Shown: positions 3,443 through 37,061 of the stretch, in pieces
Numbering within the stretch: position 1 is the stretch's first letter
Layout of the letters: every line of letters starts with the position of its first letter
From: Candidatus Shapirobacteria bacterium
Lineage (GTDB): Bacteria > Patescibacteriota > Microgenomatia > UBA12405
Direction of reading: 5' to 3'
DNA: 64,000 nucleotides
Assembly: GCA_030698565.1 (NCBI GenBank)
Contig: JAUYJS010000005.1
Location: 10,607 to 74,606, forward strand
Made by a program: the position numbers and the translations under genes
The notes under the pieces: model-generated
The model's database searches: none
What the model was told of the DNA's origin: nothing
The model's input: the letters and a program-made list of their open reading frames with translations, nothing else

Positions 3443-4560
3443 TTTAAAATATTTTTGTAGGTATCTAAAGTATTCTGAGCAGTTTTGTTCCAGGAATATT
3501 TTTGGAGTTGTTTTTTTCCTAAATTAATTAATTTAGAACGTAATGTTTTGGAGCTTTGAAGTAGCTTAATTTTACTTACTAAATCTGTGGAACTATAGGG
3601 ATCGAAATAGAGAACTGATTGATCATAAATTTCTGGCAAGCAACTAGAATTGGAAGATATAACCGGACAATTAAGTGCCATTGCTTCAAGACCAGTCAGA
3701 CTAAACCCTTCCATTAAAGATGGATGAACTAAGGCAATAGCCTTGGAATAAATTTGGGCAAATTTTGCATCGTCAATATAACCTAAAAAAGAAACTCTTT
3801 TAATCAATTTTGAATGTTTGATAATTTTTTCTAATCTTTGAGAAAAGACAGTTCGGGCACAAATTATTTTAAGTTGAATATTGGGCATTTTTTTTAGTGC
3901 TTGAATAACTACCGATATATTTTTGTGAGGATAAAGATTGCCGGTATAAATAATATAATTACTGACTATTAAATTGGGTTTTTGCGAAGTTTTTATAAAT
4001 TGTGGATCGACAGCTTCGTAAGTTGTTTGAATGTTTTGGGGGTTAATTTTAAATTTTTTAATTATAATTTCTTTCCAATAATTACTGGGTACAATAATGT
4101 AACTGGTTTTTATGGCGATCCAACTAACTATCAAATAGCCCAAGTGCTTAATCCAATAAATTCCTGGGTTTTTAGTGGTAGTTTCTTTGCCTTTGAAATA
4201 GTGTTTGATTAAATCGTGAACAGTGACAATAGACCTACCAAAATATAATATCGGTTTATTGAAGTGAGTAAAATGAACTAAATCTGGCTTGAGTTTATAT
4301 AAAATAAATGGGAGTTTAATTTGTTCTTGCCAGGAATAATGAGCAATATTGGTGGAGACATAGCCGAAGTTTTCTTGGAGATCGTTTTTGATTTCAGACT
4401 CGATGGATTTGTTAATTATCAAGGTAAATTTGTATTTATTAAAGTCTTTTGTCTGACTTAAAAAAAGGAGTAGGTTCTTGGTATAACGACCGATGCCAGT
4501 ATTTTTGGGACCATAAAGCCGAGCGTCGATAATGATATGGGGTTTTTTGTTATTTACCAT
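3439..4560 (-). CDS. Glycosyltransferase, GT4.
   Basis: EGFSLTGLEAMALNCPVISSNSSCLPEI motif. The start overlaps the upstream stop. Confidence 0.8.
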   Translation of the reverse strand: MVNNKKPHIIIDARLYGPKNTGIGRYTKNLLLFLSQTKDFNKYKFTLIINKSIESEIKNDLQENFGYVSTNIAHYSWQEQIKLPFILYKLKPDLVHFTHFNKPILYFGRSIVTVHDLIKHYFKGKETTTKNPGIYWIKHLGYLIVSWIAIKTSYIIVPSNYWKEIIIKKFKINPQNIQTTYEAVDPQFIKTSQKPNLIVSNYIIYTGNLYPHKNISVVIQALKKMPNIQLKIICARTVFSQRLEKIIKHSKLIKRVSFLGYIDDAKFAQIYSKAIALVHPSLMEGFSLTGLEAMALNCPVISSNSSCLPEIYDQSVLYFDPYSSTDLVSKIKLLQSSKTLRSKLINLGKKQLQKYSWNKTAQNTLDTYKNILK

Positions 4561-5502
4561 TTATAAATATTTCGCTTTGGAAACTCGATAAAATTCGAGA
4601 ATTTTTATGCCACTCATGACTAAAGATTTCATGGGAAAAGAATAATCTTTGAGTAAATTTTCTTGATAAAAAATTTTCATGGCTTGTGTACTGGCAAGGG
4701 CAACTTTGACTTTAGTTTGTCTTGAAGCCTGGGATATGTTTTTGGATTTACTAATTAAACCTGAAGAAACTCCCTGAAAATGGGTAATTTTACAAAAAGG
4801 ATAAAAATAAAGGTTGTATCCCCTTTTGAAAAGTTGATAACAAAAATCTAAATCTTCGCCATAGAAAAAATATTTTTCATTCCACCAATTAATTTCTTGA
4901 CCGACATTTTTTTTCACCATTAAAAAAGCTCCAACACAAGCCTCAATTTTGTGGGTTTTTTGAGTATTTAAATTACCTAAAAAATAGCCATTAAAAAAAT
5001 TGGTCTTGGGAAAAAGTTTATATAGTCCAGTGAAATAAGAAAAAGAGCGCCAGGGAGTGGGAAAACCGCGATGACATTCTGGTTGTAATTTTCCAGTGAT
5101 AGCTAATTTGATAAAGCAAGTGGCGGCGTCAACTTTTTCGTTTTTTTCAAAAAAACTAATCATTTTGGCAAAAGTATTTGATTCAACAACGGTATCTGGA
5201 TTCAAAAAAAGCACGTATTTAGAATCTTTATCTATTACTTTTAATCCTCTATTATTACCTGTGGCAAAACCCAGGTTTTTTTCGATGTGTAAAAACTTAA
5301 AAGAAATTTGTTTGTTAGTTGATTTAATGGTTTGGATATTTTGAAAAGATGTGTCTGTAGAAGCGTTGTCGGCGATAATTATTTCTATTTTATATTTATT
5401 TATCTTTGATTTATTTATACTCTCGAGACATTTTTGAAGATAAACACCTGAATTATAATTTAGAATTATTATGGAAAGATCTGTCAATTTATTTTTTAAC
5501 AT
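4561..5502 (-). CDS. Glycosyltransferase, GT2 (GT-A fold).
   Basis: N-terminal LSIIILNYNSGVYLQKCLESI...IIADNASTD (DXD-type GT2 signature). Confidence 0.75.
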   Translation of the reverse strand: MLKNKLTDLSIIILNYNSGVYLQKCLESINKSKINKYKIEIIIADNASTDTSFQNIQTIKSTNKQISFKFLHIEKNLGFATGNNRGLKVIDKDSKYVLFLNPDTVVESNTFAKMISFFEKNEKVDAATCFIKLAITGKLQPECHRGFPTPWRSFSYFTGLYKLFPKTNFFNGYFLGNLNTQKTHKIEACVGAFLMVKKNVGQEINWWNEKYFFYGEDLDFCYQLFKRGYNLYFYPFCKITHFQGVSSGLISKSKNISQASRQTKVKVALASTQAMKIFYQENLLKDYSFPMKSLVMSGIKILEFYRVSKAKYL

Positions 5503-6703
5503 TAGTAATCTCCTGATAAATTTGATTTAAACCTTGAGCACTTTTTTCATATGAATAATTATTTTTTATTAACAAATTTGTTTGTTTTCCAATTTCTTCT
5601 CGTTGAGATTTGTTGTTTAATAATTCAATAGTGTATTTGGCAATTTCATCATAATCACAGACAATGGCATGTTTAAAATTATCAATTTTAATTCCACCCA
5701 TGCCTTGATGAGTGGTTATAATGGGCAATCTGCAGGCCATAGCCTCAAAAAATTTATTGCGACTACCGCCACCACTGCCAATTGGAGCTACTAAAGTCCA
5801 ACAGTGATTGTAGTAATATTGGGGATCTTTTGGTTCTCCGTCGCCCTGTGCCTCTTCAATTACAACGTCTTTAGCTCGCCAATGACCATAAGTTTCCGGA
5901 GCGTTTCGACCAATTATATATAATTTAGCATCAGGAATTTTTGTCTTAATTTGTGGCCAAATTTCTTGATATAAAAGTTCAGCAGCTTCTCTGTTTTGCA
6001 TCCACTTCATATTGGAAACACCAAAGAGGACTGATGGGTGTTTGCTTTTTGGTGTTTTGGGAACGGATTCATAAAATCTTTTATCAACTCCATTTTGAAA
6101 TAATTTAATATCTTTTCTATTGGTTATTTTGGAAATAATGGCTTGGTCTTCGGTAGAAAACGCAGTAACAGTGTGGGTTGTTTTCCAAAAAAATATTTCC
6201 CAATATTTTAATTTAATAACGTCAAGCCATAGGAGTGGATATAGAATTTTTTTGAAACCTTTTAGGGTTTCTACATAATGTTGGTAAACAGCATATTCGA
6301 TGGTTTGGTCAACTAAAACAATAGGTATTCCTGTTTTGGGAATATTGGGCATTAAATAAAAGCACTCACAATGGATTAGATCGTATTTATGATCGTGCAA
6401 TTCTTTTTCTATTGTTTTTTTTAAGTCTGGAGATATATAGTTGGTAACTAAAAAAGGATAGGTACTAAATCCTGTATAAAGTATTTTTTTAAAATCCCAA
6501 GTTTTTCCTCTTTTGACAACTATCACTTTGGAACAAAATTGTTTAATTTCTTCCAAACCTTCTTTGTCGCGACTAAAACTTATAAGAGTTATGTCGTTTT
6601 CATTGCTTAGATATTTAATAGAATAATAGGAACTAGTTTGACCACCCGATTGAGATCTTCTGGGTAAATAAGGGGTAATCATTAAGATTTTTCTTTTTGA
6701 CAT
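5489..6703 (-). CDS. GT-B glycosyltransferase (GT4-like).
   Basis: N-terminal MITPYLP...SGGQ typical of a GT4 N-domain. C-terminal FFEAMACRLPIITT motif. Confidence 0.6.
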   Translation of the reverse strand: MSKRKILMITPYLPRRSQSGGQTSSYYSIKYLSNENDITLISFSRDKEGLEEIKQFCSKVIVVKRGKTWDFKKILYTGFSTYPFLVTNYISPDLKKTIEKELHDHKYDLIHCECFYLMPNIPKTGIPIVLVDQTIEYAVYQHYVETLKGFKKILYPLLWLDVIKLKYWEIFFWKTTHTVTAFSTEDQAIISKITNRKDIKLFQNGVDKRFYESVPKTPKSKHPSVLFGVSNMKWMQNREAAELLYQEIWPQIKTKIPDAKLYIIGRNAPETYGHWRAKDVVIEEAQGDGEPKDPQYYYNHCWTLVAPIGSGGGSRNKFFEAMACRLPIITTHQGMGGIKIDNFKHAIVCDYDEIAKYTIELLNNKSQREEIGKQTNLLIKNNYSYEKSAQGLNQIYQEITNVKK

Positions 6704-34035: not shown

Positions 34036-34935
34036 ATGAAAAAAACTAAAAAATTAATAATGACCTTATTGGTTAGAGATGAAGATGATATTTTAGAAAA
34101 AAATATAATATTTCATTTAAATCAAGGAGTTGACCATATTGTTGTTACTGATAATGACTCTGTTGATGGAACCAGGGATATCTTAGAAAAGTATAAGAAG
34201 AAGGGTGTGTTGTCTTATGTAATTGAAAGTAAGCATACGTACGAACAAGATGTGTGGGTGTCTAATATGGCTAAAAATGCCATTCGTAACTATGATGCTG
34301 ATTATGTTTTACATTGTGATGCGGATGAATTTTGGTTATCTGACGTGGGCGATTTAAAAAGTATAATATTTAAAGAAAGTTCTGATATTTTACATGTACC
34401 AGTAATTAATTATTTGCCGCCAAAAGACACTAATATAGATGGCTTTAACTTCGATAATTATAATTATATTGTTTCTTTAACAAGAGGTTGTCCTGGAGTA
34501 CTTAAAGATAGAATCAGTAGTGATTTGTTGTTATACACTTATCCAGAAAAAATAATTACTTCAAAAAAGATAGTAGATATTGGTTACGGTAACGATTCGG
34601 CTACATTTAATGGTGAGATAGAAGAAAAACATACCGATAAAATTCATATTCATCATTTTCCAATAAGAAATTGGAATCAGTTTGAAAGAAAAGTCTTTAA
34701 TGGCGGAAGTTCATATAAAAATAATCCAATAAAAAATCCAAGTATAGGTTGGCATTGGAAATCATGGTTTAGGATATACAAAAATGGTGGGTTATATAAG
34801 GAGTATGAAAAGATATCGCTAAAATATGATTTTTCTAATTATCTAGAAAACGGAATAGTAAAATATAGTTCTGTGCCTTTTAAAATTAAATATGCAGATA
34901 TTTTAAGGAAATTACACTTAACTTTTAAATTCTAG
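34036..34935 (+). CDS. Putative GT-A-like glycosyltransferase (GT2-like/GT92-like).
   Basis: LVRDEDDILEKNIIFHLNQGVDHIVVTDNDSVDGTRDIL is a DXD-containing nucleotide-binding start. The family is uncertain. Confidence 0.4.
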   Translation: MKKTKKLIMTLLVRDEDDILEKNIIFHLNQGVDHIVVTDNDSVDGTRDILEKYKKKGVLSYVIESKHTYEQDVWVSNMAKNAIRNYDADYVLHCDADEFWLSDVGDLKSIIFKESSDILHVPVINYLPPKDTNIDGFNFDNYNYIVSLTRGCPGVLKDRISSDLLLYTYPEKIITSKKIVDIGYGNDSATFNGEIEEKHTDKIHIHHFPIRNWNQFERKVFNGGSSYKNNPIKNPSIGWHWKSWFRIYKNGGLYKEYEKISLKYDFSNYLENGIVKYSSVPFKIKYADILRKLHLTFKF

Positions 34936-35668
34936 GTATTTTGTTTTTGATATAAATATTTGTTATTTTTTCAGGTTTACCGATTGCTTGGAGTTGTCCA
35001 TTTTTCAGAAATATGGCTTTTGTACAAAAAGATTTTATTTGTTCTTGCGAGTGGGATACAAATAGAATTGTTACTCCTTGTTGCTTAAACTCTTCCATTT
35101 TTTTGAAACATTTTGCTTGAAACGCGGTGTCGCCGACAGCGAGGATTTCGTCGACAATTAATATTTCCGGATTGACGTGGATAGCGACGGCAAAAGCTAA
35201 GCGCATATACATGCCAGAAGAATAGTGCTTGACTGGTTGATCGATAAATTCCCATAATTCGGCAAAATCGACAATGCTTTTAAATTTTTCGTCAATTTCT
35301 TTTTTCTTTAATCCCAAAATAGCACCATTTAAATACACATTTTCGTAGCCTGTTAATTCTGGATGCATGCCAGCACCTAGCTCGATTAGAGGTGAAATTT
35401 TACCTCTAACTATGACCTTGCCTGTTGTGGGCCACATGACACCGGCGACTAACTTTAGAATAGTTGATTTACCTGAACCGTTTGGCCCAATAATACCTAG
35501 AGTTTCTCCTTTGTTAACTTTGAAACTGATATTGGATAATGCTTTGAAGGCTTGTTTGGTTTCTTTGCCACTAAATAAGGCCGGTAAAAATTCTTTAAAA
35601 GTTTTTTGACTTAGTTTACTGAATTCTTTGGTAACGTTTTGGAATTCGATTATTGGTTCGTTTGACAT
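34925..35668 (-). CDS. wzt: ABC transporter ATP-binding protein of the polysaccharide/teichoic-acid exporter type (Wzt/TagH/KpsT-like).
   Basis: Walker A GIIGPNGSGKST, signature YSSGMYMRLAFAVA (the SSGM..RLAFA variant typical of Wzt/TagH), Walker B ILIVDE. Confidence 0.85.
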   Translation of the reverse strand: MSNEPIIEFQNVTKEFSKLSQKTFKEFLPALFSGKETKQAFKALSNISFKVNKGETLGIIGPNGSGKSTILKLVAGVMWPTTGKVIVRGKISPLIELGAGMHPELTGYENVYLNGAILGLKKKEIDEKFKSIVDFAELWEFIDQPVKHYSSGMYMRLAFAVAIHVNPEILIVDEILAVGDTAFQAKCFKKMEEFKQQGVTILFVSHSQEQIKSFCTKAIFLKNGQLQAIGKPEKITNIYIKNKIPRI

Positions 35669-35726
35669 TGATTTGTTTTATTATATAATTGCTTTATCAC
35701 GATGAGAGGACTACCAAAGGGCAATC

Positions 35727-36248
35727 TTATTTCCCGCGGGAATGCCTCTCTTTTTCTTTTTTAATTTGTAACTTTTCTTTGGCAATATTGAGTGGAAAAA
35801 TATGACTGGCATATTTTCTTAGTAATGATGAATATTTTTGATTTGGAACAATCACTTTCGCTAGTTTATGGTTTTTTTCTAAATATTCAACAAGGCAATA
35901 AAAATCACCGTCTCCTGAAACGATTATTGCTTGATTGTAGTGTGGATATTCAATCATGGCATGTAAGACTAATTCAGCATCTACATTGCCTTTGACAGTA
36001 GTTTTATCATCTTTTTTAACTTCCAAAACATGCTTAAAAATTAAAATATATCCAACTTCTTGTAAGTAATGATAAAGGCTTGAGTTTCCTTCGATATAAC
36101 CAATAAAAAGATACGTTTTTTTAACTTTGAATTTATTTAATAAATATGTTCTAAATTTACCAAAATCAAGTTTCCATCCGTTGAGTTGAGTACCTAAATT
36201 AAGATTTTGACTGTCGATGAAAGCATATGTAAGAGTATTGGACTTCAT
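35727..36248 (-). CDS. NYN-domain protein (LabA/PIN-like nuclease fold, COG1432).
   Basis: AFIDSQNL near the N-terminus, GNVDAELVLHAM, VSGDGDFYCLVEYL. 173 aa. Confidence 0.7.
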   Translation of the reverse strand: MKSNTLTYAFIDSQNLNLGTQLNGWKLDFGKFRTYLLNKFKVKKTYLFIGYIEGNSSLYHYLQEVGYILIFKHVLEVKKDDKTTVKGNVDAELVLHAMIEYPHYNQAIIVSGDGDFYCLVEYLEKNHKLAKVIVPNQKYSSLLRKYASHIFPLNIAKEKLQIKKEKERHSRGK

Positions 36249-36260
36249 TTTTTGTATGTT

Positions 36261-37061
36261 TTAGACATTATCGGCAAATATTTTTTCTTTATTTTTAAAG
36301 TATGCCAGGCCTAAAAATAAAGTTACTAGAGATAAAAGTAAACCGATACCTAGACTATTTATATTTGGTGATCCCCCGCCTAGCACTGTTTGTCGATAGG
36401 CGTTAACTATAACACTCATTGGATTTAGCTGGAAGAAAATTTTGAAACGTTCGGGTACAATATCGACTGGATAAATTATGGGGGTTATGTATAACCATAA
36501 AGTTAGTAGAAGAGCCAATAGATATTGAATGTCTCGGTATAAAAGATTGGCGGCAGCAAAGAAAAGTGATAAACCCAAAGTAAAAATTTGTTGAATTAAA
36601 AATATAGGAATTACCCAAAGAATATTTAGGTTTATAGAAATTTTAAAATAAATCATGTATATAAGTAGAATACTTAAAGCAAATAAAAAATCGATTATTT
36701 TTGCAACAACAGTAGAAATTACTAAAATAGTTCTTGGAAAATAAATCTTTGTTATTAAACTAGAAGAACCGACCAAGGCATTGCTGGCAGAGGAAAGTGA
36801 GGTGGAGAAAAGATTCCAAGGCAAAAGTGCTACGAAAAGGAAAACAGAATAAGGAATATGGCTACTAGCGTTTGTGGGAATACGTAAGATAACTGAAAAG
36901 GCAAAGCTCATTACAAGCATTTGAGCTAAAGGATTTAAAATTACCCAAAAATAACCTAATACAGATTGTTTGTAGCGGGCCTTGACTTCTCTGCCAACCA
37001 TTTGCCAAAGTAGTTCTTTCCATTTAATTATGTCCCTAATCTCAGTTACTATTTGGAGCAT
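36261..37061 (-). CDS. wzm: ABC-2 type transporter permease (Wzm/TagG/KpsM-like).
   Basis: 266 aa with 6 TM helices. The N-terminal LWQMVGREVKARYKQSVLGYFWVILNP is typical of ABC-2 permeases. Confidence 0.75.
   Translation of the reverse strand: MLQIVTEIRDIIKWKELLWQMVGREVKARYKQSVLGYFWVILNPLAQMLVMSFAFSVILRIPTNASSHIPYSVFLFVALLPWNLFSTSLSSASNALVGSSSLITKIYFPRTILVISTVVAKIIDFLFALSILLIYMIYFKISINLNILWVIPIFLIQQIFTLGLSLFFAAANLLYRDIQYLLALLLTLWLYITPIIYPVDIVPERFKIFFQLNPMSVIVNAYRQTVLGGGSPNINSLGIGLLLSLVTLFLGLAYFKNKEKIFADNV

Follow-up and report, generated by a model that had tools for sequence, protein, structure and literature searches.

What is a gene for a NYN-domain protein doing between the permease and ATPase genes of a polysaccharide exporter, and why does its end run into a GC-rich palindrome? 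The question is raised by a 64,000-nucleotide stretch of contig JAUYJS010000005.1 from a Candidatus Shapirobacteria bacterium (assembly GCA_030698565.1), which we call the window and in which all positions are counted from the first letter unless a locus of a relative is named. Within it, a reading frame of 173 amino acids on the minus strand (35727..36248) separates the exporter genes wzm and wzt. Comparison with related loci indicates that this gene is half of a mobile cassette and is neither a component of the exporter nor a regulator of its operon; its other half, encoded on the opposite strand, is a gene for a small RNA. We are highly confident of this anatomy, an NYN gene and a convergent small RNA gene forming one cassette, as read from the compared sequences, and hold the function of the pair to be a far more tentative matter.

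The NYN gene and its predicted convergent small RNA

The reading frame is present as the sequence-only reading had described it, with an ATG start and the motifs KGNVDAELVLHAM and VSGDGDFYCLVEY, and its proposed identity is supported. The protein matches the Pfam NYN family PF01936, as had been predicted, with E=1.3e-13 and 52.1 bits against a cut-off of 24.2 (residues 10-152). The predicted metal-binding residues D12, D90, D113 and D115 are invariant or nearly so in an alignment of 22 diverse homologues (A1), and the acidic residues align with acidic positions of 2qip, the sole solved relative of the protein by sequence. The structure predicted by AlphaFold (AF2; pLDDT 87.9) has the PIN-like alpha/beta fold; its best Foldseek match is again 2qip (TM 0.70/0.75, E=4e-7), and the NYN domain of MARF1 is also matched (TM 0.56-0.68). 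By these features the gene is predicted to encode an intact NYN/LabA-like nuclease of the PIN fold, and the characterised NYN enzymes suggest that its product would be an Mg/Mn-dependent RNase. NYN-fold proteins are metal-dependent endonucleases of single-stranded RNA by experiment (bioRxiv 10.1101/2024.04.08.588522), and the active site of MARF1 has been described (bioRxiv 10.1101/2024.01.29.577857). For LabA-like bacterial NYN proteins the function is not established, and earlier comparative work tied bacterial NYN genes to the maturation of tRNA and rRNA (PMC5499597).

An identical protein is recorded from a Candidatus Shapirobacteria genome; an exact-sequence look-up of the window protein returned no match. 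A word-indexed search found at least 8000 homologues with 55-94% identity, almost entirely from Patescibacteria, and the subfamily comprises at least 8000 clusters at 90% identity. An exhaustive search delimits it as a tight group of 93 clusters at 50% identity with E<=1e-30. Its members are bare single domains and appear confined to Patescibacteria. The idea that the gene might be a remnant or pseudogene finds no support here, the family being intact and strongly conserved.

The palindrome proves to be of a different nature from what its symmetry suggests. The sequence TTCCCGCGGGAA does lie at 35731-35742, between a GAGAGG and a CCTCTC arm, and the last NYN codons do overlap it, as had been noted; the symmetry itself, however, is not conserved, and relatives have CCCGAGGG, CCGAAGG or CCGACCGCG in its place. 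In the supported fold its two halves pair with upstream bases and not with each other. They are the 3' strands of two inner helices together with internal-loop bases: CCC at 35733-35735 pairs with GGG at 35719-35721 in helix P3, and GG at 35739-35740 pairs with CC at 35714-35715 in helix P2. The flanking arms form the outer helix P1, in which GAGAGG (35704..35709, plus strand) pairs with CCUCUC (35745..35750), with a U-run following at 35751-35762. The pairing of the arms is borne out by covariation in 44 sequences, but as part of a small RNA read from the plus strand. The minus-strand fold that had been proposed, computed over 35660-35790, has an unremarkable energy (z = -0.73).

The case for the structure rests on covariation and not on folding energy, which for the plus-strand RNA folded as a single sequence is itself modest (z = -1.75). 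In the 44-sequence RNA alignment (A2), 98.4% of the cells in the 10 consensus pairs are canonical and the covariation score is 0.474. Control alignments in which the partners are slid do not exceed 68.7% and 0.152, respectively. Nine of the ten pairs show compensatory double changes. Helix P1 displays such changes at 6/6 pairs, with 99.6% of its cells paired. The 11 G-U cells in the alignment favour the plus strand as the RNA strand. About 55 positions are modelled in all, with three covarying helices. A T-run follows P1 in nearly all loci, and the helix together with the U-run looks like an intrinsic terminator.

The other end of the RNA gene is marked by a sigma-70 promoter that matches the consensus at 12/12 positions, with TTGACA at 35662-35667 and TATAAT at 35684-35689 (plus strand) separated by a 16-nt spacer. 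The -35 box overlaps the first two wzt codons (ATGTCA on the minus strand). Across 72 distinct loci an equivalent promoter keeps this distance. It agrees with the consensus at 10.1 of 12 positions on average and scores at least 10 in 49 of the 72, against 1% of shuffles, while the sequence of the spacer is freely variable. The almost invariant, single-stranded 5' end of the RNA, AUCACGAUG, begins 5-7 nt past the -10 box. The predicted RNA is about 60-66 nt long (AUCACGAUGAGAGGACUACCAAAGGGCAAUCUUAUUUCCCGCGGGAAUGCCUCUCUUUUUCUUUUU; 35696..35761, plus strand); it converges with the NYN gene and is antisense to the last ~10 NYN codons and the 3' untranslated region, the overlap with the coding sequence amounting to 29-34 nt (~30 nt in the window).

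Conservation of the element extends beyond its helices. The bases that stay unpaired in the RNA, AUCACGAU in its tail and ACUA/GAAUG and AAA/GAG in its internal loops, are more conserved than the synonymous sites of the NYN gene. At the level of DNA, the motif GGCATTCCCKCGG is found at the 3' end of the gene, at a variable offset from the end of protein homology, and the same nucleotides are translated as a C-terminal RHSRGK in some homologues and, in a different frame, as GIPAGNK in others. Four other candidate roles for this sequence were considered and rejected. Constraint on the C-terminal peptide RHSRGK fails because other loci translate this stretch in a different frame (GIPAGNK) or have it past the stop codon. 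A small plus-strand peptide (MRGLPKG...) is incompatible with loop lengths that differ by non-multiples of three and with the replacement of its AUG by AUA in seven members. Pairing of the RNA 5' end with the A-F-I-D codons of the NYN gene, to which it has a 9-nt complementarity in the window, was discarded given that the synonymous positions vary freely across 80 loci. Mimicry of the 23S sarcin-ricin loop, with which the RNA has GAGAGGAC in common, was set aside on the grounds that the shared bases belong to helix P1 and are lost through covariation in classes B and C.

No trans target was found in the window, where CATCGTGAT occurs only at the locus itself. Rfam 15 gave no match over 35696-35761 even at E<=10 and none at threshold in the whole window; over 14 loci covering all RNA classes it returned tRNAs only. 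The small RNA appears to constitute an undescribed RNA family, and the comparative evidence identifies the supposed palindrome as one segment of its conserved gene, encoded opposite to NYN.

How tightly is this RNA tied to the protein? A covariance model built from A2 (R1) has a sole match in the 64 kb of the window, at 35696-35755 (76 bits, E=1.6e-15), and in 77 of the 81 NYN-anchored sequences it places the RNA at the 3' end of the gene. Only two matches go beyond these, one from locus L039, a duplicate, and one from L083, which is weak; each lies no more than ~2 kb away from an NYN gene. Among the loci missed by the model, L062 has a divergent RNA of the same architecture, as does the wzm-anchored locus L109, and L078 ends at the contig edge; only L031 is without a recognisable RNA where sequence is available. 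The NYN stop codon falls within about -6 to +41 nt of the RNA 3' end in most loci. RNA class and NYN clade co-cluster weakly, with identities of 63-72% within classes and 60-64% between them, a comparison that is confounded by linkage. No conserved protein partner emerged, the neighbours representing 130 Pfam families among 144 proteins. Judged from these loci, almost all members of a large NYN subfamily spread across the candidate phyla radiation (CPR) are paired with such an RNA. In domain, four acidic residues and fold the window protein agrees with LabA-like NYN proteins at large (PF01936/COG1432; PDB 2qip; MARF1; CRISPR-associated NYN), but in the literature that we searched no dedicated small RNA is described beside any of them, nor any other pairing of an NYN gene with a small RNA.

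Two further observations concern the reach of the family. Some NYN-RNA loci occur in metagenome-assembled genomes (MAGs) labelled Gammaproteobacteria, Pseudomonadales, Actinomycetota, Omnitrophota, Limnocylindria or Rhizobium (L014, L017, L019, L027, L028, L064, L065, L069 and L083); these are probably mis-binned contigs of Patescibacteria, transfer beyond the CPR being another possibility. Extra divergent NYN paralogues, of ~47-49% identity or of the classical LabA-like kind, lie near the cassette in some genomes (L011 2294-2842; L022 196-762; L020 495-1010 and 2242-2628; L033 2353-2859), and R1 has no match beside them.

Insertion at the wzm-wzt junction

The genes on either side of the cassette are what they had been taken for, the permease and the ATPase of an ABC exporter. 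Upstream lies wzm (36261..37061, minus strand), an ABC-2 type polysaccharide-exporter permease (PF01061, E=1.9e-15; the NCBIfam Wzm/KpsM-like model scores below cut-off), and downstream wzt (34925..35668, minus strand), a TagH/Wzt-like ATPase by NCBIfam with a PF00005 match of E=1.1e-23. All three genes are on the minus strand, and the gaps, 12 bp between wzm and NYN and 58 bp between NYN and wzt, are those originally given. A GT2 glycosyltransferase gene on the plus strand (34036-34935) converges with wzt, and the two share 11 bp (34925-34935) at their 3' ends; the surrounding genes of the window are largely glycosyltransferases, methyltransferases and polysaccharide-modifying enzymes. ARAGORN and cmscan detected no tRNA, tmRNA or Rfam-threshold RNA in the 64-kb window.

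That wzm and wzt are normally adjacent and coupled is supported by 61 metagenomic loci with close homologues of both, examined for the content of the junction: 34 are empty, the TAA of wzm being followed by the ATG of wzt within ~5 bases or overlapping it. Another 26 junctions carry an insertion, which includes NYN in seven of them and consists of other, unrelated genes in 19. These other inserts encode 23S_rRNA_IVP (PF05635), Fic/RhuM, DUF4230, DUF5674 together with a 91-aa partner ORF, and AbiEi/AbiEii. The order wzm-NYN-wzt recurs in a few relatives, sometimes with Fic or DUF5674 in the same gap, but its conservation is only local. The junction is a hotspot for small accessory genes, of which NYN is one occupant. 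Where Fic or DUF5674 share the gap, an ORF of 93-100 aa without a Pfam match overlaps the NYN start (L001 5718-6020; the JGI contig of P0005); the same ORF accompanies DUF5674 in the absence of NYN in L146, which assigns it to those cassettes and not to NYN.

The converse survey, of the neighbours of NYN homologues in 80 species-representative genomes, places wzm/wzt beside the gene in only two loci; the remaining 78, from other Patescibacteria, have it in unrelated places. An accessory component of the exporter would show conserved co-occurrence with wzm and wzt, which NYN does not. The upstream gene is co-directional with NYN in 64 of 79 loci, with a gap of at most 30 nt in 23 of these 64. 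Aminoacyl-tRNA synthetase genes occupy 9 of the 144 neighbour positions (TrpRS/TyrRS 5, ArgRS 2, class II 2), and tRNA genes lie within a few hundred bases of the cassette in L033 and L062; there may be a mild association of the cassette with the translation machinery.

The boundaries of the insertion are sharp. The cassette of ~592 bp (35669..36260, both strands), as delimited by the empty junctions of relatives and by an identity step against the related locus L157, takes the place of the linker of at most ~5 bases seen in insertion-free relatives. Nucleotide identity between the window and L157 is 0.9-1.0 across about 36240..35670 and 0.5-0.87 in the flanks, with the step falling at the wzm stop and wzt start codons. 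The fraction of identical codons at conserved residues follows the same pattern: it is 0.84 in NYN, but 0.52 in wzm and 0.53 in wzt. In other lineages with equally diverged wzm and wzt, the same junction holds an NYN only 55-59% identical and a different class of RNA; overall, the variants found there range from 55 to 93% identity and include RNAs of class A and class B. The window gene is, by this evidence from sequence comparison, an insertion into the wzm-wzt junction, and the NYN gene and its RNA move between lineages as a unit.

Decayed and rearranged copies are also found. In L165 (2778-2863) the RNA is intact and NYN has collapsed to a stub of 21 codons that keeps its first and last codons; in L162 (6455-6510) an RNA without NYN follows an AbiEi/AbiEii pair; in L062 the NYN gene is frameshifted. 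In L039 near-identical RNA copies (3467-3526 and 5473-5532) bracket two bPH_2 genes and NYN within an island in which AbiEii/AbiEi, a Bro-N protein and a Phd/ParE pair are encoded as well, and these duplicates may reflect recombination at the RNA element. A single MAG contributes two NYN loci (L010, L082). In two divergent cassette lineages, the window (35662-35668) and L125 (~4936-4946), the -35 box TTGACA is the reverse complement of a part of the wzt start ATGTCAA, with which the empty junctions also begin wzt; this coincidence could be insertion microhomology or chance.

A possible toxin-antitoxin-like role

What could be the function of a nuclease gene that travels with a small RNA? The best explanation overall is in our estimation a mobile NYN-small RNA cassette acting as a selfish, toxin-antitoxin-like or abortive-defence module, to which we give a probability of roughly 0.45; the toxin-antitoxin-like function as such, suggested by sequence features, falls slightly short of even odds. 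The NYN gene would be transcribed by read-through from the host operon, since there is no room for a promoter of its own (the gap is 12 bp here, and elsewhere the upstream gene is often co-directional and close). The small RNA would be made constitutively and would restrain the nuclease, either in the manner of type I systems, through pairing with the NYN transcript, to whose 3' end it is complementary, or in that of type III, through direct binding of the NYN protein. Direct binding seems the more likely of the two, because the unpaired RNA bases are conserved beyond the needs of antisense pairing in cis; an RNA acting only in that way needs no sequence conservation of its own. Conserved unpaired bases would imply recognition by a conserved partner, for which NYN is the obvious candidate. 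The cassette would have no part in polysaccharide export; its insertion breaks the wzm-wzt coupling and brings a consensus promoter of opposing direction onto the start codon of wzt, which may lower wzt expression. Among the possibilities that the sequence-only reading listed for the gene, that of a toxin-like element comes nearest to the evidence, whereas the operon regulator and the remnant are not supported. Other small selfish or toxin-antitoxin genes (AbiE, Fic/RhuM, 23S_rRNA_IVP, DUF5674) occupy the same junction in relatives. The island of L039, the remnants with RNA alone (L165, L162) beside a single NYN gene without a recognisable RNA (L031), and the lack of a conserved protein partner likewise speak for a module of this kind.

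Comparison with known systems reveals partial likenesses. In the type I loci with convergent 3' overlap, txpA/RatA and bsrG/SR4 of Bacillus subtilis and par fst/RNAII of Enterococcus faecalis, a protein-coding gene faces a short RNA gene with a strong promoter, and the two overlap 3' end to 3' end round a common hairpin with a U-run, as they do here, and such loci are likewise small, mobile and patchy. At the level of sequence, the window has the cis antisense RNA with its own promoter and terminator overlapping the presumptive toxin gene. It lacks the small hydrophobic membrane peptide: the toxins of those loci are membrane peptides of less than 60 aa, whereas NYN is a soluble nuclease of 173 aa, and in the window it has no promoter of its own, unlike the genes of those loci. 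Their RNAs are moreover known to be conserved only in close relatives, while the one described here is nearly invariant across CPR classes, which suggests recognition by a protein. In the type III systems ToxIN, CptIN and TenpIN the dedicated partner of an endoribonuclease is, as in the cassette, a structured small RNA in place of a protein antitoxin, and direct binding and inhibition of the putative NYN endoribonuclease by the RNA, as type III requires, is suggested by the conservation of its unpaired bases. The type III antitoxin, however, is a same-strand array of tandem direct repeats upstream of a toxin of the ToxN/AbiQ fold; here the RNA is a single convergent copy, downstream on the opposite strand, and the fold is the PIN-like one of NYN. 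SymE/SymR and RalR/RalA of Escherichia coli also combine a nuclease-like toxin with an adjacent small RNA antidote, but SymR overlaps the symE 5' end, RalA acts in trans with Hfq, and the folds are unrelated to NYN. A more specific proposal, which we advance with some doubt, is that the cassette represents a new class of RNA-controlled nuclease modules, common throughout Patescibacteria, in which a bare NYN RNase would be held in check by a dedicated protein-binding RNA of ~60 nt, conserved in sequence, in the manner of type III, with an unrelated fold and a convergent layout, as a cassette of ~600 bp spreading into tight operon junctions, the RNA being a new family with thousands of members.

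Several observations weigh against a toxin-antitoxin-like module. The evidence is wholly comparative. NYN has no promoter of its own in its 12-bp gap, which one would not ordinarily expect of an addiction module. Rapid divergence is usual for toxins and RNA antitoxins, while this protein is 55-70% identical from one CPR class to another and its RNA varies still less, a degree of conservation that would fit a conserved cellular role at least as well. The immediate neighbours of NYN are mostly housekeeping genes. Carriage by phages was not detected, there being no IMG/VR match by RNA sequence and no GenBank phage match by protein. HEC-09, the nearest NYN-type entry in a defence library, gave no phage protection when tested (bioRxiv 10.1101/2024.01.29.577857).

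A rival reading is a housekeeping or beneficial ribonucleoprotein: a conserved RNA-processing unit of the CPR in which the small RNA serves as cofactor, substrate or autoregulatory site of the NYN protein, its patchiness arising from gene shuffling and occasional transfer. Conservation of both partners across CPR classes, the tightness of the subfamily, a neighbourhood of mostly housekeeping genes with its 9/144 synthetases, the usual placement of NYN co-directionally inside the operon of its upstream gene and the link of bacterial NYN genes to tRNA and rRNA maturation (PMC5499597) all point that way. We nevertheless consider such a role, although a serious rival, to be the less likely one, given that presence and absence of the cassette are polymorphic at one junction in close relatives, that the cassette is much younger than its flanks, that decayed copies exist (L165, and L062 with its frameshift), that one MAG has two copies and that the hotspot is common to AbiE, Fic and IVP genes.

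The same mobility might be taken to mean that the cassette mobilises itself, with NYN acting as a free-standing homing-type DNA nuclease or the structured element as an attC-like recombination site; either would account for its landing more than once at one junction. The discrete unit with sharp edges, the different variants at one junction and the coincidence of TTGACA with the wzt ATGTCAA in the window and L125 would fit such an element, as would the position of the structure at the 3' edge of the cassette, its persistence alone by other cassettes (L165, L162), its duplicates bracketing genes in L039 and the slightly raised identity over the first ~90 nt of wzt. Yet the -35 and -10 hexamers are kept at a fixed distance while their spacer varies, which speaks for transcription and not just for a DNA site; the G-U pairs favour an RNA of one strand, the NYN-fold enzymes characterised so far cut RNA, and no recombinase is recurrently linked among the neighbours. 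Integron attC sites, which depend on an integrase, keep structure with little sequence conservation, the opposite of this promoter-bearing element with its conserved sequence, and we regard self-mobilisation as improbable. Least credible of all is the idea put first by the sequence-only reading, an RNA-processing factor dedicated to wzm/wzt expression. The common strand and tight spacing in the window and the wzm-NYN-wzt order of some relatives are what suggested it; it is contradicted by the 78 of 80 NYN loci in other species that have no wzm/wzt nearby, by the predominance of junctions that are empty (34/61) or hold other genes (19), NYN being present in seven, and by the unrelated character of the NYN copies that do occur there (55-93% identity).

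Implications for Patescibacteria

The LabA-like bacterial NYN proteins form a very large family, for which a strictly linked RNA offers a concrete and testable hypothesis of function. To our knowledge almost no regulatory RNAs have been described in the CPR, and the element reported here is a candidate RNA family from this group. For annotation, the NYN gene of the window should not be read as a part of the polysaccharide exporter. Should the cassette turn out to act in toxin-antitoxin or defence, RNA-antitoxin systems would come to include PIN-like nucleases, and it would exemplify how small selfish cassettes colonise translationally coupled junctions in reduced genomes.

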